Below are positions 13,937-64,000 of a DNA stretch of 64,000 nucleotides, one piece after another (position 1 is the first letter of the stretch; each line of letters starts with the position of its first letter). Position numbers and translations under genes: made by a program. Below the pieces are notes generated by a model, which worked only from the letters and a program-made list of their open reading frames with translations, had not been told where the DNA came from and searched no databases. Location of the stretch: NCBI GenBank assembly GCA_903813345.2, contig CAIIXF020000001.1:13516001-13580000 (forward strand), read 5' to 3'. Source of the stretch: Owenia fusiformis (lineage: Eukaryota).

Positions 13937-14105
13937 CTGCAAAATCAAAATTTGAATGGATGAATAAATGAATAAAATCAGTTTGCATCCCATGTAATGA
14001 TAATGAGTTTTTGGTTTCCAGATTACATAGGCCAGTTATGGTTAAGAAAAGATTGATAATCATCCATAATATCCTGAAAAATGAATAAATATATGAAAAA
14101 TATTA

Positions 14106-15303: not shown

Positions 15304-15941
15304 TAAACCATCAGAAATTACAGAATTACCAATATTTTTTTTAAATCTGACACATTTTTGAAATAAGATACATTTTAAATGACAATTTGCTTAAAGCACT
15401 CATAGAGTGCATAAATTCCCCCATTTAGCATTTCGCAGGGGTCAAGGGCTTGATGTACTAATTCTTCAGCAACATTTTCAGTGCCTTTTTTGTGTTTAAT
15501 CATGCCACAGCTTTCAATAATGTGATAATGATATCTCATTATATCTTTTCTATCAGGCACTCAAAACATTTCTGAAATTATCTGTAATGGAATCTTTACT
15601 ATTCATTTACAATTTCAATTGCCAATAATGTTGTCCTGTCAACAATGGCAATTTGTATATATGTAACTGATTGATTTTTAGAAATAAATGTGAATTATGT
15701 AAAAAAACAAAAAAAACTATTCTTTTACATCACTAAGATAACTGGAGTGATTTGTGCTTCAAACATCAGCGGTGAAACCAGAATGAATATTTTAAAATCA
15801 ACCCAATTTTTTTTTCTACATCGATTCAGAATTTTACCTGACAAGTGATATTTTTAATTATATTTGAATCAAAATATTTTCTTAATCTCATTCGATCCCT
15901 GATTTACCCTAGAAGGGTATATATTCCCCCAAACCCTAATC

Positions 15942-16503
15942 CACCCTATGCTTAGTGAGCGGAGCTAATTTCAAGGGTGATAGTAAGACGAGGCATGGCG
16001 CCCAAAAACCAAAGAATATTAGTACCATAATCTTTTAAGTCGTATTATTGCAGCATAAGGTGGTGATGTTGTGATATTTTATGCTGTTTTAGAAGTGTAA
16101 GATGTTAAACTATGCATACCGTTTGTTTTACATCCAATAAAACGAATATTTAAGATGAAACAGTCGTTTAAAGATACAATTTGAATTTACCGCAAGAAAT
16201 TACAACCTAATATTGTCAATATGTCAATAATTCCTGATCGATGTCACATATAAAGATATATGTACCTAGATATGTTTTATTTTTTCATATATGCGAAATA
16301 AGGCGGTCTCTGGTTATGTACATCCAATACAAAATAAATGTTTACGAGAGTGTCTATTCGGCGATCAGAATTTCGATGACGAGCAATGGCGATGTAATTT
16401 GCGAAGAAAGCATCAGTGCACCTAGTTACAGGCCAGGTTTGGGCGCCATGCCTCGTCTTTACCATCACCCTTGAAATTAGCTCCGCTCACTAAGCATAGG
16501 GTG
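15942..16503. mobile_element. MITE with CAC-starting ~65-bp TIRs and 5-bp TSD (Transib-like)
   Basis: TIR caccctatgcttagtgagcggagctaatttcaagggtgat / reverse complement; TSD taatc at 15937-15941 and 16504-16508. Confidence 0.85.
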
Positions 16504-16813
16504 TAATCCTACTGGCAAACTTGAAAATATTCCTCTTTTGTAAACGATCAGCTCTTAAATTATTGTTTAAATTGGCACACGTTTTTTAAATATCCTTAAG
16601 CATTGGTTGAACATGTAAATATTAGAATTTTTATCTCATATTATACATTCAAGTCATTTGGTCAGATTTCTCTGTGATGATTACTTTAGTATGTTAATTC
16701 CAGAATTGAGCTATCTACTTATCACTGGTATCAGCATTATATAGGAGGAATATATACTAATGTCTCCATGTTTGTATCTAAGGACTTCTCCTTGGCAATG
16801 TAGAGTTAAAGGG

Positions 16814-16902
16814 TGACGCATATCGTTTAGCAAATCGAACGCTCGTTTCTGGTGTTGCTCACCGTTTAGTATAAAAGGCCCGATCCCGGAATAATACTCA
16901 AG
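16814..16902 (+). promoter_or_regulatory. Candidate Pol II promoter (CRE-like TGACGCA, TATAAAAG, Inr-like)
   Basis: TGACGCA at 16814-16820, TATAAAAG at 16870-16877, tactca about 30 nt downstream, in locally CpG-richer sequence. Confidence 0.35.
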
Positions 16903-19900: not shown

Positions 19901-20661
19901 AGTAAAGTCAGATACCGTTGTCACAAATGGCGGTTGGGAACAACAATCAATCAGAGTGTCTTAATACTCATTGTACAGTTAATAATCTTCTACCATCGAA
20001 ATAAAGTCTTTAATTTAACCTATCAAAATGAGATACGGGACAATGGACACGGTAATTACCATATGCTGTTGTCTTTCTAAATTACTCAAATTCAGATTCC
20101 ATTGTCATTGACAATATCAAAGACGCTATATTGTGGCGATTCATGACCCAATTTGATTGAAATTGGGATTTCATATGAAACATCATCACAAGAGCTTAAT
20201 GCATGTACAGAATTAGCGACAATAAAATCCCATGAAATGAGGACCAAGTGATTAAACAGTTGAATCGAAGGTTGTCACAGATGGCGAACATAACCGTCGC
20301 TTCAACTGTTTAATCACTTGGTCCTCAGTTCATGGGATTTTAATGTCGCTAATTCTGTGAATGTATTAAGCTCTTGTGATGATGTTTCAAATGAAATCCC
20401 AATTTCAATCAAATTGGGTCATAAATCACCACAATATAGCATCTTCGATATCATCAATGACAATGGAATCTGAATTTGAGTAATTTAGAAAGACAACAGC
20501 ATATTGTATGTAATTACAGTGTCCGTTGTCCCGTATCTCATTTTGATCGGTTAATTTAAAGACTATATTTCGATGGTAGAACATTATTAACTGTACAATG
20601 AGTATTAAGACACTCTGATTGATTATTGTTCCAAAGGAATTTAGTCTAGGTGTTCTATTAA

Positions 20662-22247
20662 AGGAATATTCCTTGCCAGACCCTTTCTCTCTTGATATGG
20701 TAGCTATAATCATATATATAGTTTCCATATTTAGCAAAACAAGGGAAAATGTTTTAATATGGTCAATATTGATTATATAAAAATCTAGTGCTTATTTCCA
20801 GTGAGCTGCCATCTTTTAAGATTTCTTGCAGGAAGTGATGTCATCAACTCTCCACTTCTATAACCATGCCCATAACAGTATAGGAAAGTAGCACAAAATC
20901 ACTTCTAGACAAGTGATCATTAATTTCTGGGCAAAAATATTTTCAGGGCTTGTCAACTTAGAATAAAAGAAGAGATTTTCGGAAGGATTAAATAAGATAC
21001 AAAGTTGAAAAAGAATATTTAGCTGGTTTTGTAATTCTTAATAGCTCCTCACCTAATGCTATATGCAAAGTTGAGAGTCGATGACATCACTTCCTGTGTG
21101 AAATTTTAAAAGATGGCAGCTTACTGGAATTGAGCATCACATTTCTAAGTGATCAAATTTGACCATATCAAAACATTTTTGCGTGTTTTGCTAAACATGG
21201 CAAGCATATACAGGGTGTCTCAAAAAAATGTACCCAAAAGTGTATCAAGAGCACAGATAAACCAATCAATATTTTCAGACATTTTTTGCATGGTCATGTA
21301 GCCAAAACATGAAAGTTTTCTCCCCAATACACCATTTTTATTTCAGTCTTGTCTTCTTGATGCTTTAACCCTTTACCTTTTACACCACAAAATTGATGTA
21401 ACCTCATATTTCGATGACAGCCTGTATCCTTACTGCTACATTGTTCATCACATTTGATAATAATTCCGGTGAAATGTTTTGGATTTCTCTTTGGATGTTG
21501 CCCTTAAGTTGTTCTCGGTCTTTTTGCTTCGAATGAGCATTAAAACACTCCTTTAAATAGCCACAGAGAAAGATGTTTGAGGATGACGATGGCAGAAAAA
21601 ACACAGATATTCAGGTCAATTATCGGGAAATGATTCAGGAGCTACCTTCCAGAGTTAGGCAGGCTAGCCTGGAGACCAAATGAAAACACAGTGCTCTCAA
21701 ATTGATACACACAACAAAAGCTACACTAGAATCCCAACCAATGCAGTTTCTTGAACCTCTGACCTCTCTGTATAAGGGGGCTATAAGACATTGTGAGGGC
21801 CTCTCTATTCACCATATTTGACGGCCCATACTTTTTTCTCTGAGGCTATTTGAAGGAGCATTTTTATGCTAAACCCAAGCTAAGAGACCTATAACAACTT
21901 AAGACCAGCATCCGAACAGAAATCAAAACATTCCACCAGAAATATCAAATGTGATGAACAATGTAGTAGTAAGGATGCAGACTGTCATCGAAATATGAGG
22001 TTACATTGAATATGTGGTGCAAAAGATAACGGGTCAAAGTATCAAAAAGGCAGAACTGAATTAAAAACTGTGTACAGGGAAAAGAAACTTTCATCTTTTA
22101 TCTACAAGACCATGCAAAAAATGTCTGAAAAAAGTGATTGGTTTGTCTATGGTGTTGATATACTTTTGGGTACATTTTTTTGAGACACCCTATATATGGT
22201 TATAGCTACCATATGAGGAGAGAGATGGTTTGGCAAGGAATATTCCT
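20662..22247. mobile_element. TTAA-specific MITE (Kolobok/piggyBac-type)
   Basis: ttaa|aggaatattccttgcc...ggcaaggaatattcct|ttaa; the paralogous empty site ctattaaaggacaactg lies at ~18932-18948. Confidence 0.85.
21211..22192. mobile_element. Tc1/mariner-derived palindromic element with transposase C-terminal remnants, nested in the TTAA element
   Basis: ta|cagggtgtctcaaaaaaatgtacccaaaag TIR and its complement; remnant FLCGYLKE...LKGNIQREIQNISPELLSNVMNNVAVRIQAVIE (21404-21604, -) with an inverted copy near 21830-22010. Confidence 0.8.
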
Positions 22248-25200
22248 TTAAAGGACAACTGAAATAGCTTTTCTCAACTTGCAGCGACAAAAATGTGGTT
22301 TTCTCCATTGTAAGCCCAATGTAGAGTTCTTGCGATACCCATTATTAAATAAAAGTTAGATAACTGCTTACGGTCATAGATAACCAAATAAAACTAACTG
22401 TCATCAAATTGGCCCCCATGTGATTAGTAATGTCATATACAAAATATAGCTTGGTTTATTGGTTCCTTAGTAATCACAACATCATGGCAACCATAGGATT
22501 GTTGTGTAAACAAATAACAAAACATTTTGGCATTATGACGTCATGATCTAATGGACCAAAACGGGCCACGTGGGAGCCAGTGAGAGATCACGTGGGGGCC
22601 AATAACGTCACAACCAATTCGAATATTGCTTATTAAGCAGCTATAACGATCGTTAGAGTGAAATAATTTTCACACTACTGATGAGAAAACATGTCCAAAT
22701 ACATTTATCAAAAAATCACTTTGATTCCTTTAGGTTAAAAATACCATTTCATATCTGCCTTAAGCATACAGTTCATGAAAATCTAATCGAAGTGGCGGTT
22801 ATGTCCCCCATTTGTGACAACGGTATCTGACTTTACCGTTGTCAGGCTATTCCGATGTGAATTGGATTGAGCTCTGAGATATGAATGAACAGGTAAACAT
22901 TAAGTATGTAACAATAGCATAATTGATTATAACACAAAAGTAAACTCATATTAACGTCATGTACCTTTGGTAAATTCTTGCACAAAGGAATACATCACTG
23001 GATGAGATCCCCATTGGAGATAAACTCACCCACGTCTTGCATAATTTGAGCTTGTTTGTGCCTGGAGGAATGGATTGATATATAGCCAAAATCTGTTCTT
23101 ATTTTACAAAAATGTACTAACAAACCCATATTATTTTTAGATACATGTATGTACTATTGGTAAGCGAAATCTTAAAATAAGTCTTCCCTATTATATTTTT
23201 AAAAAATATTGGTCAATTTGAAGCAAGTTGAAAAAAGACCTTTTTGACCTTTTCTGACCTTGAGAAGGTCTTTGAAACTAGTACTGCATTATGTTGTACT
23301 TAAAGAGAGAATCAGAGATAGCGAGTAGGCTAAACAAAAAATATTTCAATTTTAGAATATTTTTGGCTCATGTCATTCCTTGTCATGTCTATTTTCTAAA
23401 AATCACAAAAGTGCATACTTTATTCAAGGAAAACGAAAGATTTTTACAATAATGTATTATTTTTCTATAAGAATGGTTACCATTCTTATTATTTGGGAGA
23501 ACTGAAATCTATTTTGCACTTTGAATCATTAATAACTTTACCAATTTATAACATATTGTGAATCTTTTGGGAGATATTGTATTTGATATTGTAAGCAATA
23601 GATTGGTAGGTCAATTATGCACATTGCTTGTAATTTTGTCACCCCCTATAGATCTGATTCTGCCTTTAATTGCTCTTACAAAATATAAAATGTGCACATA
23701 TGGTATATAGAAAAAAATATTACTTTTCAACTATGATGTATTATCTTCTTCATGGTTTGTCAACTTAGAATGTTATAATGCACAAAATGGAAAAGTTAAC
23801 ATTATAGCAATGTCTATAGCTGTGACAAAAAATATGAAAGTGGTATTCTAAAACTGCTGCGTCTAGCTCCGATTTTATAAATCGGTTGGGGAAAAAGTTA
23901 TTTGGTATTTTTGTTCCAGACACTTCGATAGTAAATTTATTTTTGATGGAGTAAAAAAGGATTTTAAGCAAAATACTGAGCTGGGAAATTCAAAAATTTA
24001 AATGAATAAGCTGAGAAGTGCATTAAACATTTTAACATAATGTATAATTATGCAACCCATCAGATCATCACCATTTCATTAAATACAGCGACCTTTTAGG
24101 AAAAAACAAAGCTAATATCCCAATCTATCACCTTAGGATGAAAAATTGATTTGAATAATACTAAAGACTTACATAAGTGATTCAGACCAGTCAACCTAAC
24201 ATTTGCCAAAATATACCACCAAATTATGGATTTTTCATTTGCCGAAATATACCATCAAATTATTTTCTTATATATATTTTGGGGAAAAATAATAACTTTT
24301 GCAAAAATCTAACATTTTCTCACCATATTTCAATGAAAATCAGCGCACGTTGCCTTTCAAAATATTTGAGTTTCCTTTCCATCTTTCCTTTCTTCTCTAA
24401 GTCATCTTGACAATTTTCAAACTCAAAAACATTTTTGAAATTGACCTTTATATACTTGGGTCAGAAGCTGATTCAGATCACTTATTCAGAATACCAAGAA
24501 AGATTCCTATCATTGAAATGGCTATATCAATCAATTTGAAGAATGTTGGACATGAATGACCTGAAAGAAATATATTGATACATACATGTAGAGTGCCGTA
24601 AATCTCTAAATAATGAAAATGACTTATTTTTTACCTTATCTATTGACCTTCAACATTTGGAAATTCCTTAACCATTTTAGACCTACATGTAGAAATAATG
24701 TAACCTTAATTTCCAAGAAACTAGGTCATATACACTACTTTTGTCACCTTATTCATGTGTACATGATTAAAATAAATACCACTACGATAATTCCCACTGG
24801 TAATAGGTAATATTTAGGCCTTCGGGTGTTTAACCACCTTAAACTACTGTGTCAAAAAATCCACCTAAAAAGTGTATTTTTGTCTTCTATTATAGGACTA
24901 CAGTTTCTTGAAAAATTTACCATATCTCTTAATTTAGGTTGACAGGCACTGAATCTCATATCCCAGATAAAGAGACAATTCTGATTCATATGTTTTACAA
25001 TTGACGCAATTATTATACCTCATCTCCATTTATTTGCGTCAGTGATTTGGCACTAGATAAAACCATAATGTAACCAGGTAACGGTCGAGCTAGGGTCACA
25101 ATTCTATAATTCCTCGATTGATTAGGAATACATAGAACAATATCACAAATTATTTAAGTGGCCCGGAACCCTTTTGAGGGTTGCAGATTAATAGTCGTTA

Positions 25201-25424
25201 AGTAACATGTTGCAGAAGTCATTAATTTACCTCTATGAGACATCATCGAGTTAATTAAATAGCTCTTGAATCAACTGAAACTTGATTTTCTGTGATGCTA
25301 AAGACGTGGACACAGGAAGTCTCTTACTCTAGATTCTAATGTTACAACATGTACCTTTTCAAATATACATAATCATATTCTATCGTTCAATCTACCAAAA
25401 GACCTGACATCAAGTATCATGGAA

Positions 25425-26138
25425 ACAAGGCATTAACATGACAAACTGTCACCACCTAGTTGCTCACAATATTATTGTAGATGATTTTGAAAGCAAGTTG
25501 AAAAAATACCTTTTTTGACCCTGAAAAGGTCATTGAAGGTGAAATCTCAAATCTAAAGTCAGATTTGAACTTCTGAGAACTTGTAGATGATTTTGAAAAA
25601 ATGGTCAATTTGTAGAAAGTTGATAAAAACCTTTTTGACCTCAAGAAGGTCATTGAAGGTCAAATATTTTTGACCTTTAGAATATTATTGAAGGTCAAAT
25701 CTATAGTCAGATTTGAACTTTTGAGAACTTCTAGTTGATTTTGTTTAAATTAATCAATTTGAAGCAAGTTGTAAAAGACCTTTTTGACCTTGAGAAGGTC
25801 AATGAAGGTCAAATTTCAAATCTAAAGTCATATTTAAATTTCTGATAACTTGTAGATGATTTTGAAAAGAATTTGGTCAATTTGAAGCAAGTTAAAAAAT
25901 ACCTTTTTGACCCTTTTTGACCTTGAAAAGGTCACTGAAGGTTTAATCTTATATAAAAAGTCAGATTTGAACTTCTGAAAACTTGTAGATGATTTTGGAA
26001 AAAAAACTGAAGTCAGTCTAAAAATTATTTGTTAAGTTATTGGAAGTTGTAACAATTTGTTACAGATGCCAACCACCTCCAATTGCCGATCACCAACCGC
26101 CATAACAATATAACACCACCTTTTGGTGGAGACATAAT
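25425..26138. mobile_element. HINE-like element (gaccttgagaaggtcattgaaggtcaa family)
   Basis: Shares internal repeats and terminus with 14700-15303; short fragments near 29670, 46730 and 55555. Confidence 0.6.
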
Positions 26139-28144
26139 GAAAACAAACAAATAATAGATGATCTGGAACAGTGTAATTAATTGTAAAATCCCATGACCCA
26201 TGTCCACCCATTGGCTTTATTGGATGAAATCTCAGATTCATCCGATAGCATTTGATTTGATTGCAATGTAATCACTTAATTTAAGGCTCTCAGGATTGCC
26301 TAAAATGATCAATTTAATGTTTTATCCCATTGGTTGATTCAGAATATGATTGACCATTGAAATTGTCTGGATAGGATCTCATTATAATAAACTGTCCACA
26401 TCTTTGCACTGTTATCCCTGGTGTAAGATTTTGAGTTTTTTATGGAGTTTTGGCTCAATTGATAACTTTTTCTCATTGAGATCTAATAGAAAATCCATCT
26501 GCAATTCTAAGGGTGCATTATAAATGTACATTAAATAAAAAACTGATAAACAGTAGACTCAAGATATATGGAAAGATCTTAATCTGACTTTAACTTTACT
26601 TATTTTTGACAATTATATGCCAGAGGTTTGTAAACAAAAATCCAGCGATACATTTCCCTCCATAAGGAGTGTAACCATTTTGAATAAAAATTGAAAATGA
26701 AAATCTGCAATAGAATCTAGCAGTATTCATCTTCACAAATTTTACTTTACATTATATGTATTCTGCAATAATTTTTGAAATGTGTAATTCTAATGAAAAA
26801 GTAAAATCTTACATTCTCATTACAACACCTGCTAATATGTACATACAGTTGCCAAATATTATATCTCTCACAGAGAGAGAGAAAATACACCTCCCAAGCA
26901 GAATGTTTTTGGATATACAAGGTGTTCCACTTACACAGGTTTTACTGTCCATCCATATTTTTATGAAATGATGGGATGAAAGCACTACTTATGGAAAAAA
27001 TCATCTGTACCATTGATTCTACATAGCTCCCAACCATATGTGTATCTCCTTTCATCTAAAACAGGCTTTCATAAAAAAGATTAACACCTAAATTCAATTC
27101 CTATAATGACACTGATTCAAACCGATAATAAGTAAAAGAAATGCTATTTAGTTTACCATTAATTCTCAGAGAAAATCTTGTATCCAGGAATATTCTAGAC
27201 TTAAATATTGAATGGTAACAAATTAACGCCACGTAAAGCTCAAAAAATAAATCTGGTAATTCTTTCTTCCTGGTCTTACAGATTCAGCGAAAATATTCTG
27301 GTCTGAGACAAAAACGTAAGCCTCCCTCAAGATCAAATGGTCCTTCCGCATGGTTTTTAGTCTCATATTGTACATGTACTGTCAGTGCCACCTGTTCCAA
27401 TCTGTTATCATCAAGAAGCTGGGAAATGGAGGATTAATTACTGACCATGATGAATAGGAAATACTTTGGAATATTACTTAAATCCTGGAACATATTTCAA
27501 ATTTAACATGACAGGACATGAACATTTAAAAATAATCCAATTATTAAATTTGAAAACTCAATTCATGATTTTAGATCACACAAAAAGTATTTAGATGTGT
27601 GGGACTGTCAGATCTGAGGGGTGGGAGTTTACAACCAAAATTATATGTTCAAATCCATTTGCCTAAAAATGCTGTTTGGGCCAAATATTTGAAAAGATGT
27701 GCCTAGCCTTTGTATTAATTTCTAAAAAGAAGCCAAATTAGAAAATATATTCAAAAACAATTTCTACTGTACCACTGATCAAATTATACTAATTGTTTCA
27801 GTATCTATGAAATCAAACTCTGTCACAATATTATTTAAATCTTTTAACTCCACCAAATGATGCATTATACTAATTTAATTATGTGGGAGACCAAATATTC
27901 CCTTGCGAATCCACCCACCTACTTTATAAACATGTGAATTCCAATCATCACAATCTCCCCTTTCTAGAAAATGAGTTCGTCCTCATACCTCAACAGCAAA
28001 TAGATCAATAAAATTGAAAGCTGGAAAAATGGACTGGTCCAAAGGATTATAAGTAATTTAGCAACAGGCCTCATTCCTACAAAATTCTGCAAGAGACCAA
28101 GGATTTACAGCTGATTTGAGCCAAAGACAAAAAAAGAAATCAAA

Positions 28145-28220
28145 ATGAAATCTTTTACTGTTTGCATAGCTTTGGCTCTTCTCATAGCAGTTACAAATGC
28201 CAATTACTTTGGCAAACGAG
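28145..28220 (+). CDS. Nested neuropeptide precursor exon 1: signal peptide plus NYF-GKR (MKSFTVCIALALLIAVTNANYFGKR-G)
   Basis: caaaATG context; n/h/c-region signal peptide ending T-N-A; amidation/cleavage site GKR; strong donor AG|gtaagt (phase 1). Confidence 0.82.
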
Positions 28221-30197
28221 GTAAGTTGATAACTTTTTCTTACTTTTTAATCAAAATACTTTTCAGTTTTATTCAAAATATATACCATAAATAGAAAATA
28301 AGTGTTTTAATCGATAACAATAAATTTCTCATCATGTTTAAGGTATTATCTGAATGTCGTAATAATGTTCTAATAGTGAGAATATTCCTATCTTTTATTT
28401 ATACAAAAGTTGACAAGTGTGAAGAAAAACCAATGAATAAATCACAGGTCTCATTTCTGAATCACTGCGCTTTTTCTGTTTATTCTAGTCTATACTGTTA
28501 TATATGAGCACTCAACAAAAGCATTTTTTAAGTATAAGAAACACAAATTCATGCAGTTCTGCTAAATTGCTATTAAAAATATTAATCCATTTAGTTGATG
28601 AAGCAAATAAACAATTGGAAGGAATTTAAAATCAAGTGTTTGATGCTTCTATCATTTGTAAACACAAAAATGGATAGAACATGATCGATGTTAAGATACA
28701 CAATGGCAATGGTAATTTTGATAGAACAAAGCTACAACCAAAATGTAAATATATTCTGGACTTAAACCAAATCCGGGTTTTGATGTAATCTCAAAAGCAT
28801 TGGTCATACATTCAAAACATCATTATTCCCAATGACGCATGACTCTAAGATTTACTAATTTGCATATTAGTGGAGTTTTTTATACTCTAGTTACGTAATC
28901 TGATCATTTGTTGATCAATCACATGACTGATGTGTACACATCGGACTTAATTCGCCATTTTTTCATAGCTAAACTTGTAATCCTTTAATACACTTAATAC
29001 AGCCGGAATACTTTCAAGCAATTTGACAGCATGCAGCATATTCCAATCCAAGGACTCTGATTTATACTAATTAATTCGTAAAACATCATAGTTGTTTCAA
29101 AATATTTCATAACTTTGGATGGTTTAGTATTTAATCTTGAATTGTCTTCAGTATTGCATACTTTCAAAATAACAATAACAACAATGGAGTAAAGTGAATT
29201 CAAGTAGTGTTTGATTGAATCCCACGATTCTGCAAGATTTCCTGATTTCACAAGGAATAGTCACTTACGTCACACATTAGGTTGATGGTCAACCCTTTAG
29301 GCAGTTGATAACAGTCATACTTACAAAATTAAAAAGATTTATAACAAAGTAAAACTCAGTCAACTTGTCATTTAGTAACATGACATGAAATAGAATAATA
29401 GCATAATAGAATGACAGGTCAATCATAATAGAAAGACAGGTCAACCAGAATGACAGGTCACACATAATAGAAAGACAGGTCAACCAGAATGACAGGTCAA
29501 CCACAACAGAATGGCAGGTCAAACAGTGCTCCCTTGATGACTTGGATGACTTCTTATAATTAATAATTAAATGATGCACTGCGCTTTATACATGACAAAC
29601 ATTGAAAGTTTCAGAATTGGAATCATGTTACTGGAAAGGTAGATTAAACAGGTCAACAAATAGCGAATGAAACGAGGCATTAACATGCAAAATATAACCA
29701 CCTGCCATTTGTTACAGATGCCAAACACTAACTGCTAAACACCAACCGCTAACCAACGCCACAAAAATGTAGGAGACTAGAACAATATGTCACAACTTGT
29801 GGTGATAACATAAAAATGATTATGAAATCTCTACAAAATTAATGTTGACACAAACTGAATTTTCAATAATTATCAAAATACTTCATTCTTCTATGGAGAA
29901 TTCTTTTTAGCTTGTCATCATTATCAATGAAGCTCACACTTTTAGACAAGCCTACATCGAGTTTAAAGACCCAAAGTTCCTTTTTAATGCTAACAATATC
30001 CTAATAGCTTTAGGAATAATTTGAGCAACTTGAAAAATTACAAAGTAAACGACAGCTTAGGAAAGATTATGTGAATTAATGAGATAGTGCCTCTTCAAAA
30101 GGACAGATTGTCTCCGAGAAGTTTGTCACTTAAAATAAAATGTCACAGTGTTAGGGATGGTGTCGAATTATCATTTGTTGTGGAGTAATGAAGCTCA

Positions 30198-30800
30198 TTT
30201 TGTTTGGGGAGGGGGCAAATTATGGTTTTGTTAGTGAACAGTGTTGATTTTGTTGGGGGAGGGGGCAAATTATGGTTTTGTTAGTGAACAGTGTTGATTT
30301 TGTTGGGGGAGGGGGCAAATTATGATTTTGTTAGTGAACAGTGTTGATTTTGTTGGGGGAGGGGGCAAATTATGGTTTTGTTAGTGAACAGTGTTGATTT
30401 TGTTGGGGGAGGGGGCAAATTATGGTTTTGTTAGTGAACAGTGTTGATTTTGTTGGGGGAGGGGGCAAATTATGGTTTTGTTAGTGAACAGTGTTGATTT
30501 TGTTGGGGGAGGGGGCAAATTATGGTTTTGTTAGTGAACAGTGTTGATTTTGTTGGAGGAGGGGGCAAATTATGGTTTTGTTAGTGAACAGTGTTGATTT
30601 TGTTGGGGGAGGGGCCAAATTATGGTTTTGTTAGTGAACAGTGTTGATTTTGTTGGGGGAGGGGGCAAATTATGGTTTTGTTAGTGAACAGTGTTGATTT
30701 TGTTGGGGGAGGGGCCAAATTATGTTTTTGTTAGTGAACAGTGTTGATTTTGTTGGGGGAGGGGCCAAATTATGGTTTTGTTAGTGAACAGTGTTGATTT
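30198..30800 (+). repeat. 50-bp G-rich minisatellite, ~12 copies
   Basis: Unit gtgttgattttgttgggggagggggcaaattatggttttgttagtgaaca. Confidence 0.95.
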
Positions 30801-32251
30801 TTTTAATTCAATATTCAAATGAAAGACATATCAATATTTTAAAAGTTGTTAGATGAGGGGAGGGGTGAAACCATAATGAAGTTAACTCTTGTATTTGGTA
30901 TTTTATTGTGACTCACTTCACCATATCAGATCAGAAATACAGATTTGGTTTTAAATTTTCATAAAATAAAAAAGAGAGGAGGGAATGATATGAAACAAAC
31001 ATGAATATGATTTTATTGGTGTGATATGCAACAATTAACTAATTGTCGTAAATATAATGAAATTCTATTTTGACTTTTGTTGATTTCAGGTGCAAAATAT
31101 TTTGCACAGTTTCACAATCATTCATGAATTATGGCTCACAATTTCTATACCTCAATGCAAATTCAAGATATACCCCTTTAATGCATTGATTCATTCAATA
31201 AATTAGGAGAAAACTTACGGGGCAATAACAATTTGAACTAAACTGTTTATTTTGTATTTACAAGATTACAACAGCACAATGTTTAAATGGAATTTACTGC
31301 AAATCAATTGCCATCATCATTTCCCAAGATCATACTCAAATATTTGTAACCCGAATTACGTACAGTTTTGCAGAATGATCCTGCTAGTTACTTTTATTTA
31401 TCTATATATTTAGACTTAGATTTAGTGGCATCATTAGTAGTGCCTTTATGGAGCTGTCGCACTTAGGCCGTGTGGGCTCACCATTCGCCACTGTTAGAAT
31501 ACTTTGGGGCAGATGACATGTATATACGATGGGCAAAACAAATAGTTGATTTTACAGCAAGATATCTCCCATCACACCAAATACAAAATGTTTGAATTAT
31601 TTAAAAAATGAATGCCCTAACACTGGTGAATAATGGGCACATGGCTAATTGGAGCATTTGATGGCTTCAGCCAGGGGCTTTCCTGGATTGTTCAATGGAT
31701 GAAACAGTGATGCACATGATAACGCCAAAGACCTTGAAATTGAGATAAATCATATATTCCATCAAAAATCATATAAGTGCATCATATTTTAGTTTTCAAG
31801 CAATAAAGGGGCACTCAATTATCCTTATTCCCATGGTTGTGCTAGTCTTTAACATATCACTGCAGCATTAGTCTCACATGTAGCTCCCATTGTGAGATGG
31901 CTAAACTAATTGTCATCATTGAAAAATCTCAAGAACCTGATTGGTTGCATTGTGAGTAGTTGATAAACCCATGTGTGGTGAATTATCAACAAAACTTTTA
32001 CTCACATTTCTTCTATGGGGATTTCCCTTTTGACAACACCTTTTTATAGTAGAATAATCAACAGAATAATTTCATCAATGTCTGATTTTTCCATTTACCC
32101 GCCGCAGTGTCTATACATAGGCACTGCCATGGGAGTTTGTCAATAATCCGATTATGTAACACCTACAGCTTTCAATTTACATCTAACCTCCAAGGCCAAC
32201 CTCTGGTGTCCCACAAAATAACCACTGTCACTATCAGAATTTTTTACTGAA

Positions 32252-32640
32252 AGGACGATTCTCGGTTTGGAGAACGAAGTTCATCAATCTAAATGAGCAT
32301 TATCCCTGTTTCGGACAAATTTGATTTTTTTACATAATATAGATTTGAATGTCTTCTTTTGAATAGTCATAATTTAATTTGGGTAATATTTCTAGATTTT
32401 TCGCAAAAAAATATTAGCGCAGTACACTGATGAACTTCTTTCCCCAAATCGAGACTTGTATTTTATTGAATCGGTCTATTTGAGCATTATCCCTGCTTCA
32501 GACCAATTTGTTATTTTTACATCTTGTAGATTTAATTGTCCTCTTTTGAATATTCATAGTTTAATTTGGGTAATATTTCTATATTTTTCATGAAAATTTT
32601 TTTAGCCCAGGAGGCTGTTCTCCAAACCGAGAATCGTCCT
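32252..32640. mobile_element. MITE family (aggacgattctcggtttggagaac TIR); other copies near 17624-18010, 19187-19570 and 54377-54768
   Basis: Inverted termini and shared internal ~140-bp subrepeats among the four copies. Confidence 0.75.
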
Positions 32641-32783
32641 TTATTTAAAATTGGGATGAATTTTTCAAGAGTACAAATGTCTGCTCCATTGTACTGGTTT
32701 AAATAACTGATTAAAAATTTTCCAGCCAGATTTTTGGTTTTCAAATTGTTTGTCCATCAATTTCTGAAATTAATTGTTGTTAA

Positions 32784-33451
32784 AGGAGTGGTATCGATAT
32801 GGAGAACTGAATTCAACAATGTTTTTCTCTAAAACCAATCATTGAAAACATTCTGTAAAAAACATGGTATTTTATGTAATGTTGACAATAATTTAATGCG
32901 AACATTTTTGAGAAATATTCTATATAACTGATTTTGTTAACATTTTTTGCTTTTTCAGTGCAATTGTTTTTGCTCCTTTCTACCAATTCTTGAGAATGAA
33001 ATAAAATGTCTTTCTGAACCTTTTTGGAACAAAATAGCATTATACAACATGTTATTAGACCTCTCAATATTATACAAAGGAATTTTTGGTTGATTTTACA
33101 AAAGTATTCAAAAAATTAAAACAAAATCCCCAAAAATAGATAAAAATCAAGATAAATCTTTTATTTCATTAACAAGATACTTTTTTAAAATCAACCAAAA
33201 TTTCCTTTGTACAATTACAGTATTGAGAGACCTAAACATGTTGTGTTTATGTCGTTTTGTTTCAATGAGGTTCGAAATGATGTTTCATTTCACTCTGGAA
33301 ACATGATACCAAGAACAAAACAAGTGTTTGATGTGTTTTATAAAACAATATAGATGAAAGTATATATATATTTGTTAAATTTTTAGATTTTTTTATGACT
33401 GGTTTAAGAGAAACGTGTGTTCAAAAAGTTCTCCATATCGATACCACTTCT
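32784..33451. mobile_element. TTAA-type MITE
   Basis: ttaa|aggagtggtatcgatatggagaact...agttctccatatcgataccacttct. Confidence 0.7.
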
Positions 33452-34721
33452 TTATGGTTCAACCATACTTGTGTCACAACATAGATCATTGTAAATTAGA
33501 ACTGTGATATTACGTCCCCATTCCCTGGAGTCCAACAGACACGATACAAAGAGTAATCTTTCAAACATTTAGACACAAAAAGCATTTGCATAATAGCTTC
33601 TGTATCGTAATCAGATATTTCAAATCTAAAGGGAATTAGCGTTGACAGTTTCACTATCCCATTTATTTCTTGGTCATTTTAGATTTCCAAGACAAAATTA
33701 AAACAACTTATGATTTACGTGGAAACTTCTTTTTTCACAAAAACTTCTTAAAAATAATCCTGACTCTGTGAATGTGTCATCTGTACATAGTTTTTACATC
33801 AATTATAAGATTTGCCATAATAAAAATCATACATTAAAGCAAATATATGTCAAGTTTATCAAGATAAACATGAGATAAAAAGGATATACATGTACATGTA
33901 AAAGGAGCCTGGAAATAATAGATAAAAGAAATTAAGGGAACTTTGACAGAAATCAACCAACCACTCGTGCTTATATAGGTTTAAATCTTAATAAGAGTCA
34001 AGGTTTACTCTAAAAGCTACAAACTTGAGGTTTAGATTAATAAAAGTACACATGATTGTATGGATATGTGATGATTAAGTGTAATGGTTCAATTCTTGAC
34101 TTGATCTCTTTAATTCAACAGAAGGTACCAATTGCCAATTAATATTTAATGAGAAATTCCTGTAGTTATCTGTCAATATACCTACTAACCCTATTTATAG
34201 GGTTCATTATGTCACATCCTATTTACCAACTTCTCGCCCCTGTCAATCACTTCATGTAAACCAATGAACAATCTCAAATCTCTCGTACTCATGTCGTAAG
34301 TTTCACTCACATGGGGTAATTTTCCCAAGATTTGGAAATTCCTTACGTTGGTTGCGTCATCCGATTTCTCTGATCTAGTTTCTTATGCTTATGTCAACAA
34401 AAGTCTATTATGTCAATTAAAAGCATTCGATGAAGCCCCATCCATAATCATAATATTAATAATAATGGTAGTACTACAACAGGTATAGATCCATCATTAA
34501 TTGGGTGAAACAAAATGGAATTAATGATGTTTTTATTGAAATCTAAGAATCCAATAATTGAGCATCAATAAAATGTTTCGATAAACAGTAAAATAATAAG
34601 GTGTATTGTAATTAATTAGATACTGGTGCACCTTTTCTACCTACTTCTTTTAAGGCCTTTTAATTTGCCTTACGATTCCCGTGTGTGAATGAACATTGTA
34701 TTTATACATGTATTGAATTAA

Positions 34722-35039
34722 GGTAGAACTTCAGTGTCGACCGACATTTTTTCTATAATACAAAATAGGTGAAAATTAGAAAGATTGACTGCTTGGTATT
34801 TCTAAAAACATGTTTTCATTCAACATTAATTTCAAAAGGAAAATTCTTTTTTTATTCAAAAATTGCACAATTCAGATTTTCTTCAAAAATTGTGATTATT
34901 CTCTACGAATACAAAAGTATTTGTTGTAATATTTATGAATATTTACCACCCAGATCTTGAGGAAAATGATTTGTTCAGTTTTCGTTTTTGGCATCAGATA
35001 TGCGCGAACTGACTGCGCAATGGGCATTGAAGTTCTACC
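34722..35039. mobile_element. Short TTAA-type MITE
   Basis: ttaa|ggtagaacttca...tgaagttctacc|ttag. Confidence 0.6.
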
Positions 35040-37420
35040 TTAGGTAGAATTCTCTCTTATTCTCTTTACCCTTCCCTCTCTCTATCAGGATACTATATTA
35101 CCATACTGCATTATGTAACACTTACATCATTTACCTGGCAGAGAGGAAAGACGTTCACTTAGTTCAAAACCGAAATAGCTGAATTGATCTAAAGGACCTT
35201 TATGATCACATTTACAGAGAACATGAACTAGTTTAAATCAATTATGTCTTTAGACGCAATATTCAACCTCAATAAGAGGTGATTAGTAAGCCAAATATGG
35301 CACTAATGGTTCCGCTTCTATTATTAATCCTGCTAATTGTATTACAGAAGATACATCATTATGGAATCAATAGCTACCCCCAATATATGAGCCTATTGAT
35401 GAGCTGGTTGTTTTACCTCAACTTATTGTCAAAACATTCAAGGCGGATACTTCAAACAGAATAATCAAGATTCAACCTGATGATTAGTCAATTCTGTTTG
35501 TTTTAGCTCAGAGAGCCACAAGAATGGCAAAATGGCTGATACAAAACTATTAATGCCTCAAATATATGAGCTAATGTTTGACAGAAACTTGTTTGTACAA
35601 TTTTCATATACTGAACTATTTTTGGACTGGCAAGAAGGTAGTTAAAAAAGTGATACAAAATTTGTTCATAATTATTGAGGTATTTTAGTGATTAGCAGTA
35701 ATGTTGATAAAGTTGTCATCGTTATAATGGTGGAAATATATATTTAAATGAAATATTTTAATTTACCTTTCAACTTTAATTACCTCAATCTGACTGTTTA
35801 ATGTCTGAAGTATAAAACATGTACAATCAGGGATACATTGTTTATTTGTTTTAATTTTTACCATCCTGAAGCTAATATGTTACAACCAATATATGCCTGT
35901 CTCGTTGGAAACTTTCAGCATGGTGGATCAATTAAAAAGTTGTATAAAAGCCCTGGCGCAAAGGAACATCATGATCATCATTCATCCTGGAGGCACAAGA
36001 AATATTTTGACAAGTTTTCCATGACATGATTATAACAATATATCAGCTAATAAATTAGTTATGAAAACTTGGGAGTTTTATATTTATGCTTTAAGTGGTC
36101 CCTTTGGTTGCCATGTGACAACACATTTTTCAATAAAAAATTTTTATCTTCCATCTTTCAGTTTCAGGGGATTAAGTAAAAAACTAAGTATACTCACTTC
36201 ATAAATAACCACTTAAAAAGAATGTGTACACATTTATCAAGACATTTTGAATCATCTCCAATATGTATTAATAATCTTTTGGAATGCAATTAATGTAAGC
36301 ATTAACATACACCTTTTTATATGTAATATACCGTGTAATTATTATGCAAATAACTAAAACACTTTTACTTAATCCACCATAAAGTTTTATATCATTTTAG
36401 CTTACAATTAAATATAATTATAAAAGAAAAATATACTAATATCTTATATCAAAAAGTATTATGCCATATTAGGCAATATCTAAAGTTGGTAACTAGGTAC
36501 ACATATCATACTTATTTTTTACCAAACTCTGCCATGCTGAACAAAAGATACCAATCTGAAATACTAAAATAAAAAATTACTTATTGAAGGCAGACTTGAT
36601 ATATGAAGTAAAACATTTCGCTTTGAGCAAATAATGTACCACGAAACTATAATTAACAAACAGTCAAACAATCTTTTGTTGCAAATCTCTGAGGAATGAA
36701 GTATCAAGTGTTTTCAACTTTAAAACAACATTATTCCCTGAGGATCTACAAGATAATATCCATAAAGGCCACCAGCCAAAGTATTGCCATACCAACCATG
36801 ACATCATTGTAAATAAAAAATTGATTCCAAAATCAAATTTTGTTTTTTACTTTCCTGTATCACTGAAATCACCATGGGGAACTCAGAAATGTTTGATTTT
36901 CTCAGCAAGTTGGTGAAATCATTATTGATATCAAAATGTTTCAATCAATTTTACATCGATTTAATCCAAATCCTCTCTAGAGGCTATAGTAATAAGTTAT
37001 CAACTGATGTTCCTCAATCAATTACTGTACCTTGTTATTGATTAAGATGGCCAAACAATAACAAAAAATATTCCAATTCCAATTCCAATAATAAACTTCT
37101 ATGCAAACAGAACAGTATGGTGGTCCATAGACACATGAAGTTCACTGGCTACTGGTCACTGACACTGATGATGTTTACACACTGATATAAAACAATTCTG
37201 TTAACTTAATGGCCAAAAGGGAAATCTTTAAAGGGGCAACAAGGACTGTAGAGAGAAAATTCGTAAATTTTTATTTTTTATGAGCTATCAGGTCAATATT
37301 TGGCTTAACATCTTCTTTGCACTAATTGTTGTACCTGTTAAGGTATCAATAACCCAAAAGAATAAGTATAATCAGATATGAAGAAAAACACCAAATATCC
37401 CATCCAATGATGTAACATAC

Positions 37421-38327
37421 ATAAGGGTTATGTACTGGGAGGTTTTGGATATGGGGTTTATCCAGAGGGAGATATGCATATCTACCTGAGGGACAGTAGG
37501 GACCGAAGGTAGATGTGCATATCTCACAAGGGATGAACCCAATATCCAAACCGACCGTACATAACTGCTTTATCCTATACCAAGTAGAGTTTCCAGGGGC
37601 ATATGGCCATTTCAATAGTTCAAGGTGTAAAAATAAACAAATTATTCATATGCAAAGTCATTTTATTGCATTACCAGAAGCGGGAAGATATGCACCGGAA
37701 GCGGGAAGATATGCACCGAAGCGGGAGATATGGCGGGAGATATGGAGGTTCTGGATATGGAAACCTCAAAATCAGGATACGGGATATATCTTACCAACTT
37801 ATCTCCCTTAAACTCTACTTGGCATAGGATAAATAAGGGTTATGTACTGGGAGGTTTTGGATACAGGGTTTATCCCAAGGGAAATATGTGTATCTCCCGA
37901 GGGGCCGCAGGGACCGAGGGAGATACACATATTCCCCGCGGGATAAGCCCTGTATCCAAAACCGACCGTACATAACAGATGTATTTCATACCTACCGAGG
38001 TTCTAGGTACATCATACCTTTCAAAATTCCAAAATTCCAAAACATACTTAAGGTACGCGTTTTCTTATTCTTAAAGTTTGCGAGATTTTCAAAAAAATTG
38101 AAATTTTAAAAAAAATTGAAAAAAAATGTTGATAAAAATTTTTGAATATAATTTGGAAAAAAAATAATTGAAAAAAAAATTTGAAAAAAATGTTGATTAA
38201 AAATTTTGGAGCGGGACCGGGATGGATACAGCGTGTATCCATCCCGGTCCCGGGCCTTGGTAATAGCTCCCTAGATACACTATATATTCCTGCTCGTTAT
38301 GTACCTAGTACCTCAGTAGGTATGAAA
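37421..38327. repeat. Palindrome-rich interspersed repeat (possibly Crypton-type non-autonomous element); second copy at 42873-43220
   Basis: ataagggttatgtactgggaggttttgga recurs at 37421, ~37833 and ~42873; perfect hairpin gggaccgggatggataca-gcg-tgtatccatcccggtccc near 38213-38251. Confidence 0.6.
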
Positions 38328-39856
38328 TACTTAAACATACATCCAACCTGCACAATTCTTCTCATAATAAAATAATACATGCCCATGCAAGTTGGAAGGA
38401 AGTTTGATATACTAAGAACCAAATCTTCAATCTTATTTGCAGGCACTTTACTATAAATTACACACTTGTGTGTTGCTAGAAATATTCAGTGATTTATCCT
38501 ATGTGTAAATGAAAGAGAATTGTGACTTATCTCTTCTGTAGAAATCCTTTAAGGTAACAATATATGTAGGCTGTGTGAAACATGTGCAAATGAGCAATGG
38601 TCAAATACTACTGTTTTACAACAATAGTGGGTAGTAAAATTAAGTGATTTTTTACAGGAAAATTAAACTTTGACTCTATCCTCTTAGCAGATTGCTCTTA
38701 ATCATATTGTAAAATATTTTATTATCAGCCTGATTGCGCTGAATAGACATTAACTTCTTGAAGGTTTCTTGAGGTTATAGAAATATACATGTAAGAATTG
38801 ATCTAAAATCTAAATTATAACCTTTTGAACATTGAACATTGACAAATGTTGACAAATGTGATGTTTCTAACATTTCAATTTTTGTTTGGTGGTTACCACT
38901 GCCTGTTTTGGAAAGCTTATTTATATGCTGGATAAATTGTATACATGTATAATCATAAGTGTGCCTATTCTGAAAAAAAGTTTATTTAAGAAAATAGGAA
39001 ATTTCAAATTATTTATTTTCAACAAATAGATTGCCATGTTAAATCAGGATGTTATAATAAATCTAATTAAGTATGATTTATCTTTTGAGTATGTCTTGTA
39101 GTCTGGAATAAAATCTTTAAAATAATATATGACATAGACTAAATAGGTAAACAAAAATAACAACTTTTTTTAATGGGTGACAATTGTAACAGTGTTCATA
39201 TTTACGAGTCTAGAAACTGAAACTGACTAGTCTCCAAGGTGTTAAATAATTAAATTGATTTGTGTTAAAAGCACTTTACTTAAAATTGGCATAAACTATT
39301 CCCTGTCTCTGTGGAGTCATTCATTAATAGTAAGCATTGTATATATCTGGGGGTTTCACTCCAATATACCTCTTAAAACCTATGTACCATGCCAAAGACC
39401 CCCTTTTTTGAGCTTTTTTCCATGTTAATTCCCTCTCAAGATTGAAAGTTTCCATGTACACTTTCTCTCAGACTTATAAAAAGGCATAAATTTCCTGAAA
39501 AATTGGTATATTAACTACAAAATCCACATTTTGGATGATTTTTCCCAGACCTAGCAAACTGATTTTACCGATTTATTACCATTTTTTGTAGAAAAACTGA
39601 TTTTTGACTTAAAAAGGGTTCTCTCATGCTGCACATACCTACCAGAATTATTAAGAGTGAACCCCCCGAGTATATATGGTCAAGAATATTAAACTCTATC
39701 AAATTAAACATAAATGAACTATTCACTTACTTTGCACAATTCTATCAAAAAAACCTGGACAAGAATCAGATATTTGATTATCTTAATCATAGGACCAATC
39801 TGTTGATTTGATAAAACGGACTGATTTTTAAAAGAAAATTTTGTTTGTGATTCCAG

Positions 39857-40011
39857 GAAATGAGAAAATCGACCTGAAAGACATCATTCAAAGTAGAATG
39901 GAGCAGATTGACAGTCTCAGGCAAGAGAATATGGAAGCAGTACTAAATGATATGGAGAACCTCATTGCAATGTGGCGTGCAAAGATCCAAGCTGTCACCA
40001 AGGAGAAGTAA
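39857..40011 (+). CDS. Nested neuropeptide precursor exon 2 (G-NEKIDLKDIIQSRMEQIDSLRQENMEAVLNDMENLIAMWRAKIQAVTKEK*)
   Basis: ttttgtttgtgattccag| acceptor; phase 1 matches exon 1; 51 open codons in AT-rich intron; AATAAA signals near 40183, 40241 and 40272. Confidence 0.75.
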
Positions 40012-43000
40012 ATTCTTGGAACTAGGCTACCCTACATGGTAATTTTAATTCCACACCTAGTGTTTTAAAGAAATTGTTGCCCATTGGCTATTATAATATG
40101 AAATAGATTTCTTACTGTGATAAAATAGTTTTTGTGCTTTTTCCTGATACCTATAGTTTAGAACTGAATTATGTATCATAAAAATAAATTTTGCCCTTTG
40201 TGGCTTTTTCAGTGGACTAAAATTGATCCTTATATCATAAAATAAATTTTGGCTTCAAGCTTGTTTCATATAATAAATGTTTCTAATTCATACCAATCAG
40301 AGAATGTCTTTTGATGCTTTATTGAGTCAGAAAAACACTATTATCCGTTTTTGGATATTTTGTCACCGTAGTAGCTTATCAAAGTCCTCAGACATCGCTA
40401 TGCAACATCGGTAAAAGTAGAACAAACTTGTGAAAGTTATCGTTTTGAGTTCATTGCATAGAGGTGATGAAGATATGAAGTGCTCTTATCATTTCTAACA
40501 CTTAAATACCAGGAAAAATAAGATCAGATTTCCAAAATGAAAAGTTCATAGCAAACTGAATCCGAGTGCCATGTGTAAATATAGTATATCACAGGCTATC
40601 CATAATACATCAATAGAGATCAAGAATTAATTTAATAGTTTTATCCATCGATGGGGAGAGATAAGAATTTGAATGTGATAGTATGATTAATTGAGAATGC
40701 CTAATAAAGTCAGTAATTCACAAAGTGGTTTAACCTTTGAGATCATCGGCATTGGCCATAGATGCATTCAAGATTGAACTCTCCCTTATATCTCCATCAA
40801 ATAGATGATAAGGGGACATAAAACAGCAGTTGTTCGCAAATACTACCTAGAAAACTCGGTCTAATTGATTTTTATTTCGTATCTACATAGTAATTTATTT
40901 TTCAAGGAATTAGCTAAAAGAAACAATGTGTGCTTAAACGTAGTGATTCCGTGGAGAAAACCAAGTATCTATACACACCATTCTATTTAAATAACACTGG
41001 AATAAATCGTGACGTACTTATTAGGCGATAATTGTATGAACTCGTAACAATTCTTGCGTTCATGTTTTTAGACATGATTTGAAACAGTATGTATGAAGAC
41101 AAGACACGGAATGTACCCTGAAAACATTTAAGTATTTTCTCAGTTGTAAATGAAAACTAATTGATTCATTTTGTTGCTCTTAAAATGTCCTTACAGTTGG
41201 TAAGTTTCTTTACATAGTACAATATGGATTACTCAATATATGCAAATTCATATAGACTTTTTTTTAACACTTTGTTCTTTATTTTCAGGTGGTCAAGCAA
41301 AAGATGGGTGATATTTTTACAAAAACAGTTCCCAAACATTCCGAAAGTCTCAAAAGCAGAAAAACAACTGGAGAAAATGAGGTTCACTCCCAATTTTGAC
41401 AATTTTGGCATATACCAAATTTTTAGACTTGCCCATAATTCAGACAATAGTTTACTAGAAGATGATAGAAAAAAGATTTATGCAAAGTATACACTATACA
41501 GTGTACAAAGCCACCTCAAGTTTCTTTTAAAAATGTTGCTAGGTAAATCAAATTGTGTTTTATCTACACAGGGTATCAATACAGAAATTAATATCTATAA
41601 AATAAAAAATTGCTTAGTTGTCATAATTACATTCTATTGGTGGCTTAGTTACGGTAAATTTTGAAATTATCTGTTACACCAATCAAAAAGAAATTCTTTT
41701 GTTAATACAATAAAAGAGTTTGGACTTGAAATGATCTGATGTATTGTTAAAGTATATACATGTACATGTGTACTTCTGTTAATAAACACTCCATTTGTAA
41801 ATATATTATGTTTGCTGGTAAATCTATTATTTAATTGCAATAGCTAAAACAGTCCAAAAATGCACAACAATCATCCACAATACTCTATGTGTTATCTTCA
41901 ATATGCATTTGTCCCAATTTTCTGCAAATTAAACGATGAATTCTCCACATGAGATAAGTGTTCTAAAAATATGGTGACATTGACACCATCATGAATTTAC
42001 TGCCATTTAGTGAGATTTTCAAAATAAAACATCTCTTTTTTGGACTATTCCGAAGATATCATGGACGTAGCCAGGGGGAGGGGGTGCGATGGCTGTGAAT
42101 GCACCCCCACCCCCCCCATGCCCATGGATTTGTCACAAGAAATGCAACTAGGAAAGAAAAAAGATTACTGATTATTTGTACTTTGAGAAATTCATGTTTC
42201 TCGGGGGATTCTTTGACAATTTTGGCCCAAGATCATTTGAAGTGTTCCTAAGGGTGAAAACTGCATGCATGTTGGAGAAATTATGGCCAGGGCCTGTTCC
42301 TGTAAAGTAAATATGTTCATAAATTGAAATTCAATCAGTGCTCGGATGAAGTAGTACCATACAGGAAAGTGGCATATGACGAATTTTGAGATAATGATAA
42401 TATGGTTCATATTCCATATAGCAGCAAGCATTTATTTCCATTTTAAAGACACTTAACTAAATGATATGGGAATAAAGAAAGTGATAATCCTATTAAAATA
42501 TACCATGTTGTAAATCTGAAAGCATTTATGTTGTAATAATGAAGTCAAATAATTCAGGTCACAAGATATACTGAAAATGGTAAGTGCAATTGGAATTCAC
42601 GTTATTCAATTTAAAATGTATGGGCTGTTAAGTGTCTCCAATGTATTCTCTAATGGGATTTAAATCATATGTACAAATGTCTCTATTTGTGATTCATTTT
42701 AAGCAAATGAGGGGTCATTGTTCTAGTTTAATGTACAATGCATTTTAGGGAGCATGTATCTGACCAATAGGACAAAATGAAAATATATATGAAAATTATT
42801 GCACAATATTAATATTTTTAACTCCTTTTGCCATGACCTCTAAGCTTGATTTCTATGGAATGTAGTGTTTAAATAAGGGTTATGTACTGGGAGGTTTTGG
42901 ATATGGGGTTTATCCAGAGGGAGATATGCATATCTACCTGAGGGACCGTAGGGACCGAAGACAGATGTGCATATCTCACAATCCTATACCAAGTTGAGTT

Positions 43001-43626
43001 TTCAGGGGCATATGGCCATTTCAATAGAACAAGGTGTAAAAATAAACAAATCATTCATATGTAAAGTCATTTTATTGCATTACCGGAAGCGGGAAGATAT
43101 GCACCGAAGCGGGAGATATGGCGGGAGATATGGAGGTTCTGGATATTGAAACCTCAAAATCAGGATACGGGATATATCTTACCAACTCATCTCCCTAAAA
43201 CTCTACTTGGCATGGGATAAAAATGCATATACAACCATGTCTAAAACACTGCACAGAGCGAACAATAGTGTACCTAAAAATCAAAAATGGATCAAGCATG
43301 CCCTAAAACTAATCAGAGATTTTCATACCAAGTAACATCTTGAAAAAACAAATCAATCCTTCGTGCTTCTTAAAATGCAGAGCAAGAAAATAGTGACACC
43401 ACCTACTGCCCACCGACTTGCCTGTCAAACTGTTGGTTAATATTGTACCCTTTTTAGTTTTACACGAGGGTTGTCCCAGAAGTAATGGACTATATAATAA
43501 CCAAGTAGTATAAACATATTTCAATGTATGATTTTGTGAATCAAATAACTAGCCTGAATTAACCTCTTCAGTGAAATATTTCAAGAGATTTAGAGGAATT
43601 GAAAATATTTATGCTAGAAGGTTTAC

Positions 43627-63934: not shown

Positions 63935-64000
63935 CTGTGAAACAGACAATTACATGTTTATGTGTGTTACGCAAAAAGTTCAGTTGTTTCAAATACAGAA

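Follow-up and report, generated by a model that had tools for sequence, protein, structure and literature searches.

We analyzed a 64,000-nucleotide stretch of the genome of the annelid Owenia fusiformis (GenBank assembly GCA_903813345.2, contig CAIIXF020000001.1, positions 13,516,001 to 13,580,000 of the forward strand). We refer to this whole stretch as the window and give all positions in its own numbering. Its minus strand carries a host gene that is, by sequence, of the CLC-6 H+/Cl− exchanger type, and one 29.7-kb intron of that gene (13943..43620 on the minus strand, between exons 43770-43621 and 13942-13781 as placed by tblastn) contains a proposed first coding exon, the second coding exon and a candidate third exon of a small peptide gene that is read from the plus strand. 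This nested gene is very probably real, and the 76-residue product that we read from it is probably right. Our preferred reading, which we hold to be moderately likely, is that it encodes a secreted prohormone of the NdWFamide type that would give Asn-Tyr-Phe-NH2, from a gene of at least three exons.

Exon Structure and Reading Frame

The coding part of the first exon (28145..28220, plus strand) measures 76 nt, that is, 25 codons and one base, and by direct reading closes with the donor GAG/GTAAGT at 28220. Its ATG at 28145, in the context ATCAAAATGA, is the first in-frame ATG downstream of a TGA 10 codons 5′ (scripted check), and a sequence scan finds no ATG between 28073 and 28144. The acceptor at 39856/39857 reads ...TTTGTTTGTGATTCCAG/G. 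Joined by script from 28220 to 39857 in phase 1, the two pieces form a frame of 76 codons that closes with TAA at 40009-40011; left unspliced, the frame from 28145 reads 24 further codons inside the intron and then meets a stop. The predicted intron 1 (28221..39856, plus strand) would thus span 11,636 nt in phase 1, and it contains a 605-bp tandem array and high-copy repeats. The second exon (39857..40038, plus strand) holds the final 51 codons, the stop, 27 nt of 3′ untranslated region (3′UTR) and the donor G/GTAATT. Its phase-1 frame is open for 50 codons, and the remaining frames on both strands are closed. Upstream of the start, TATAAG (28048..28053, plus strand), a possible TATA box by position, lies 25 nt 5′ of the A in TCATT (28071..28075, plus strand), a possible initiator with a proposed start site at 28073. 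The ATG, donor, acceptor, phase, length of 76 residues and stop were all proposed in a first-pass annotation of the window and are reproduced here by direct reading and script; TATAAG and TCATT likewise lie where it had placed them.

We asked how often such a first exon arises by scanning both strands of the window with a crude rule (an ATG, a hydrophobic signal core, small residues at −3/−1, 2-12 residues and then G[KR][KR]). Only two sites were returned, of which 28145 alone has a donor, and 0/100 first-order Markov surrogates of the window yielded any such site, a contrast that is an upper bound on the surprise because the scan criteria were set after the case was known and the surrogates lack real heterogeneity. 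Under a relaxed rule, 20 phase-1 ATG exons lie 5′ of 39857, and the 28145 exon is the best of them: its donor fits 8/9 consensus positions, more than any other, and it has the sole convincing signal peptide. On the acceptor side, 261/6507 AG sites of the window (4.0%) are open for at least 50 codons onward in the phase-1 frame. Because exon 1 is the sole exon in the window to combine a signal peptide, Gly-Lys-Arg and a strong donor, with no counterpart in the surrogates, and because its phase fits that of exon 2, we infer the junction 28220/39857.

Transcript Evidence

Assembled contigs from two studies show exon 2 spliced on both sides. A search of sequencing runs with 39857-40300 listed 18 runs, 15 containing part of this stretch and none containing half of its words, and reads and contigs of four of them (X1, X2, X15 and X18) were mapped to 30810-40400, an interval that starts past exon 1. 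In X2 and X15, which come from two studies, contigs match the window solely at 39855-40040 and run on into unmatched sequence at both ends. The X15 contig (record 16; run of 31 million letters) is 568 nt long with unmatched ends of 292 and 90 nt and a depth of 15, and the X2 contig (record 23; run of 123 million letters) is 458 nt long with unmatched ends of 154 and 118 nt and a depth of 4.8. AG and GT flank 39857-40038 in the plus-strand orientation only, and the two surplus matched letters on each side follow if exon 1 ends in AG and the next exon begins with GT. Given these borders and the unmatched flanks, 39857-40038 is a real internal plus-strand exon spliced at both ends; a further 3′UTR exon follows, and the message has a 3′UTR intron. 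Both runs behave as RNA, since they are small and their unique intron bins are without depth, yet they have depth on the exon. X1, by comparison, is DNA-like, with unique intron bins at about 3-20 and one contig unspliced across 39701-40182.

These contigs uphold one part of the first-pass gene model and revise another. The acceptor predicted at 39857 for a spliced plus-strand transcript is supported by the contigs of two runs. The second exon had been taken as the last, and this fails: the same contigs depart from the genome at 40038/40040, at G/GTAATT. The AATAAA signals expected behind the stop are present, at 40183, 40241 and 40272, but the main 3′ end probably lies elsewhere, given that the transcript is spliced onward from 40038. 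With the stop 27 nt ahead of the next junction, the 50-55 nt rule, a general rule for nonsense-mediated decay, does not make this message a target of that pathway.

The best candidate for the further 3′UTR exon begins at 41289, judged by its acceptor sequence. This site (...CTTTGTTCTTTATTTTCAG/GTGG) is the nearest of 56 AG/GT sites 3′ of 40040, and its pyrimidine tract (15/19) is joint best among them. An exon beginning with GT here would explain why the contig match extends 2 nt beyond 40038. We tentatively place this exon at 41289..41630 on the plus strand, with an approximate end past an AATAAA at 41601. The same region holds a 148-residue stop-to-stop open reading frame (ORF; 41218-41664, plus strand), unusually long for 34% GC, which overlaps the candidate third exon in a frame unreachable from the stop-containing exon 2. 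The ORF has no Pfam match, and its 124-residue open frame within the candidate exon has no match in the ESM Atlas.

Two further observations concern the contigs themselves. At 39998, where the window has C, each of the three runs with contigs reads A, which changes Thr to Asn near the C terminus of the predicted tail and is an allele or strain difference. A separate X2 contig (depth 3) lies at 40079-40228, just past the spliced-out donor, and includes the AATAAA at 40183. Its source may be a minor isoform that stays unspliced and ends near 40228, or else pre-mRNA or unspliced read-through.

Predicted Prohormone and Processing

The 76-residue translation has the parts of a short prohormone. Residues 1-19 (28145..28201, plus strand) form a predicted signal peptide with a cut after ...T-N-A, and by a crude test of hydrophobic core and −3/−1 residues the best cut falls after Ala19, which would leave N-Y-F-G-K-R (residues 20-25) at the new N terminus. 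This agrees with the first-pass proposal of cleavage after Ala19 followed by NYF-GKR. In translation, the predicted mature tripeptide Asn-Tyr-Phe occupies 28202..28210 and Gly-Lys-Arg, the putative amide donor and dibasic convertase site, 28211..28219, both on the plus strand. The tail behind them (39859..40008, plus strand; 50/51 residues) is without a dibasic site. It is mildly acidic, with a pI of 4.93 and 10 acidic vs. 8 basic residues, and in a single-sequence AlphaFold2 model its residues 6-49 form a single helix (pLDDT 94.5). An amphipathic acidic tail had been suggested, of which only the acidity stands. The hydrophobic moment of 0.362 is no higher than that of shuffled tails (0.427 ± 0.099; 73% of 2,000 shuffles reach the observed value), so an amphipathic tail is not supported.

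We propose that the gene, with at least three exons and lying antisense in the CLC-6 intron on the plus strand, is the source of a secreted prohormone of 76 residues. Exon 1 would supply the signal peptide, Asn-Tyr-Phe and Gly-Lys-Arg, exon 2 the mildly acidic, helical tail of 51 residues together with the stop, and a further exon most of the 3′UTR. Signal peptidase would cleave behind Ala19 and a prohormone convertase behind Lys-Arg, a carboxypeptidase would trim Lys-Arg, and peptidylglycine alpha-amidating monooxygenase would convert the exposed Gly into a C-terminal amide. The predicted products are Asn-Tyr-Phe-NH2 and one 51-residue associated peptide. Asn-Tyr-Phe-NH2 would most likely be a neuropeptide or hormone acting on a G-protein-coupled receptor, and its residue 2 may be turned into D-Tyr. 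Convertase cleavage, carboxypeptidase trimming and Gly amidation are general prohormone biochemistry; we infer their use here, as we do the family relationship, cell type and function.

Comparison with Known Peptide Precursors

NdWFamide is described as a gastropod cardioactive tripeptide with D-Trp (PMC5364533). Its precursor family is reported from oysters (PMC4200219), from a scallop, whose member is predicted to yield NWYamide (PMC5996578), and from nemerteans and phoronids (PMC8557429), and one report calls the family widespread in other lophotrochozoans (PMC6425005). The precursor lengths given, signal peptide included, are 83-90 residues (90 in Aplysia and 83-84 in sea slugs), with the sea-slug orthologues reported as 40-46% identical to the Aplysia precursor (PMC8735849). 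The Conus NdWFamide gene is reported to have a first intron of 2-17 kb, and, according to the same source, genes for neuropeptides and secreted proteins typically have an intron of phase 1 behind the signal sequence, after 50-100 nt of coding sequence (PMC13542836). Nervous-tissue extract of Aplysia is reported to isomerize both NWFa and GYFD at residue 2 (PMC11277431); the latter case means that the substrates can include peptides with Tyr at position 2.

The Owenia precursor resembles these members in layout. It is short (76 residues vs. 83-90) and has a predicted signal peptide, followed by one Asn-aromatic-aromatic tripeptide, Gly and a dibasic pair, and one spacer peptide. N-Y-F-G-K-R occurs in a single copy, with no further dibasic site. 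In known NdWFamide members the tripeptide likewise stands directly behind the signal peptide. A large intron behind the signal-peptide exon is shared with the Conus gene. Unlike the molluscan members, this one has an annelid host, and no sequence similarity to them was found from this gene's side. The NdWFamide-family membership suggested in the first-pass annotation is consistent with the length, the signal peptide and the single copy of the Asn-aromatic-aromatic-Gly-dibasic arrangement, but position 2 has Tyr instead of Trp. By analogy, the gene probably works like an NdWFamide-type precursor, recognized here by its layout and with a variant product. A stronger claim is that Owenia, which sits on the earliest annelid branch, makes Asn-D-Tyr-Phe-NH2 and that this D-amino-acid tripeptide hormone of an annelid is the orthologue of molluscan NdWFamide; we regard it as unlikely.

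Two other groups of precursors share parts of this design. AKH, corazonin and GnRH-type precursors also consist of a signal peptide, one bioactive peptide, G-K/R-R and one precursor-related peptide, and they undergo the same processing. Their peptides, however, are 8-12 residues long with pyroglutamate (pGlu) and conserved motifs, and nothing in the 76-residue precursor resembles them. Achatin precursors carry many non-amidated copies between dibasic sites, unlike the one predicted amidated copy here. What the Owenia peptide would share with the achatin-type GdFFD and GdYFD of Aplysia is a very short length and an aromatic residue at position 2, Tyr included, of a kind that a nervous-tissue isomerase is reported to convert (PMC11277431).

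The peptide gene looks unannotated. The protein library that we searched by word index (5.8 billion entries) includes Owenia fusiformis CLC-6 but not the peptide gene, which was apparently missed in the annotation. Within the window there is no paralogue: tblastn with both exon peptides returned only the peptides themselves, the next best matches having E values of 0.22 and 3.1. Searches of the literature for NYFGKR, NYFamide, NWFGKR, NWYGKR and two exon-peptide stretches returned no paper from main texts, family precursors being placed in supplements, and NYF-NH2 occurs in main texts in one unrelated review. The supplements of the NdWFamide literature may contain this gene or an orthologue of it in annelids. 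A paper on the Owenia nervous system covers four other peptides only (PMC10880339), and the main text of a Platynereis neuropeptide survey contains no tripeptide, NYF, WFa or NdWFamide (PMC3890597).

Alternative Explanations

Several results weigh against the NdWFamide-type reading, and they bear in turn on how the exons are joined, where the contigs come from and how the product is classified. The junction 28220/39857 is unseen, the mapped stretch having begun at 30810, past exon 1. Exon 2 could therefore come from a non-coding or other plus-strand transcript with a different 5′ exon, in which case the 28145 ORF would be a chance occurrence and there would be no NYF peptide. The unmatched contig flanks leave room for this, because they measure 90 and 118 nt at one end vs. 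292 and 154 nt at the other, in unstated orientation, and the 5′ part could exceed the proposed 148-nt first exon. Expression is also very low in X18, a certified raw RNA run of which about 12% was read, with about one read on exon 2 (depth 0.25). Set against these points, the feature set of exon 1 is matched neither in the surrogates nor at any other window site with a donor, its phase fits the sole open frame of exon 2, and none of the 20 alternative phase-1 ATG exons has a comparable donor together with a signal peptide. A 50-codon frame open from its acceptor is, moreover, found at only 4% of AG sites. We consider such a different transcript improbable. A DNA origin of the exon-precise contigs, for example from a processed retrocopy elsewhere while the window locus is silent, is more improbable still, to the point of being hardly credible. 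It draws on the RNA status of X2 and X15, which is a guess ("RNA?" and "?"), so that a processed DNA copy elsewhere could yield the same contigs, and on the X2 piece, which differs from the window at 6/186 letters. Runs of 31 and 123 million letters are nevertheless too small to assemble a single-copy DNA locus, yet they reach depths of 15 and 4.8 with empty unique intron bins, and a retrocopy would itself show that a spliced mRNA once existed.

The classification of the product is less settled than the existence of the exon. A real gene with a secreted product could encode a lineage-specific annelid peptide that merely converges on the NdWFamide layout, its active part being either NYF-NH2 or the 51-residue tail. 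The failure of sequence searches fits this. The 50-residue tail found no candidate among the 27-88-residue proteins of the word-indexed library and nothing at E ≤ 0.001 when 1.84 billion representatives, whatever their length, were scanned in full with HMMER, and it has no Pfam family and no usable ESM Atlas match. The 59-residue, partly intronic stop-to-stop ORF of exon 1, searched for proteins sharing N-Y-F-G-K-R-G, gave one candidate and none scored at E ≤ 10. These searches found no relative of either exon peptide that would document conservation of N-x-F-G-K-R in related species. Also against the NdWFamide-type reading, the signal cut site comes from a crude rule rather than SignalP, and Tyr21 stands in place of the name-giving Trp, which holds position 2 in both family peptides compared (Aplysia NWFa and scallop NWYamide). 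The main text of the Platynereis survey points toward convergence, and the layout of one peptide behind a signal peptide is common to unrelated families such as AKH and corazonin. On the other side, a precursor that has about 80 residues and places Asn-aromatic-aromatic-Gly-dibasic directly after the signal peptide matches the family very specifically, and published work describes this family as widespread among lophotrochozoans (PMC6425005, PMC8557429). Short precursors also diverge fast, as the reported sea-slug identities to Aplysia illustrate, so a failed cross-phylum search means little. We take convergence to be a serious contender, if a rather unlikely one, and retain the NdWFamide-type prohormone as the preferred reading.

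Host Gene, Repeats and Neighboring Features

The identity of the host gene is supported by domain and protein comparisons. Among minus-strand ORFs, Pfam finds Voltage_CLC (PF00654) in three exon ORFs and CBS (PF00571) in one. The closest solved CLC is human CLC-6 (83 bits vs. 54 for CLC-7), which is also the sole match for the CBS1 exon. A search with one host exon returned 532 proteins at E ≤ 1e-5, and 14 of the 120 listed were compared with the window by tblastn. An "unnamed protein product [Owenia fusiformis]" of 851 residues aligned between 58551 and 10639 as 21 pieces whose mean identity is 93.8%, several host exons being 100% identical to it; the 13 other compared proteins reached 57-73%. 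Antisense nesting in a giant CLCN6 intron, as first proposed, is thus supported by Pfam, by the best solved relative and by tblastn. The molluscan source assumed at the same time has to be given up, since the host CLC-6 shares about 94% of its residues with the Owenia fusiformis protein, which makes the genome that of an annelid.

Repeats occur within and around the nested gene. The tandem array in intron 1 (30197-30801) comprises 12.1 copies of a 50-bp unit with 98% matches. In each of the four runs, high-copy repeats at 32090-33690 and 37210-38170, and also at about 42860-43220, have word depths ranging from the thousands into the tens of thousands, and the raw RNA run reads them on both strands. 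Because the ORFs at 37346-37975 appear again at 42869-43220, the same element stands on both sides of exon 2. Elsewhere in the CLC-6 intron, 18166-18960 and 19892-20791 are duplicated (the ORFs at 18369-18551 and 18571-18750 equal those at 20092-20274 and 20294-20473, respectively), and they are a local duplication or two mobile-element copies. A long series of near-identical short ORFs at 250-3385 (plus strand; GGK[FS]IYSGHLPHPRFTY...) suggests a satellite with a period of roughly 200 bp. Upstream of the CLC-6 gene, SET-domain exons at 63337-63949 (minus strand) mark a histone-methyltransferase-like neighbor. A search of the whole window against Rfam at the gathering score gave 0 matches.

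Significance for Annelid Peptide Signaling

The finding introduces no new principle: the NdWFamide family, this route of processing and the nesting of genes all have precedents. What it contributes is a peptide-hormone gene, apparently unannotated, in an annelid reference that is used in reconstructing ancestral nervous systems, and it illustrates how peptide genes with two coding exons, an 11.6-kb intron and an antisense-nested position escape gene prediction. NYF-NH2, with L- or D-Tyr, is a cheaply synthesized candidate ligand for receptor deorphanization and for larval and adult physiology. If the gene is an NdWFamide orthologue, the reach of one D-amino-acid neuropeptide system would include annelids. 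If its product is in addition Asn-D-Tyr-Phe-NH2, both NdWFamide signaling and the L-to-D isomerization of residue 2 would be placed at the common base of annelids and molluscs, and residue 2 would be able to change from Trp to Tyr.

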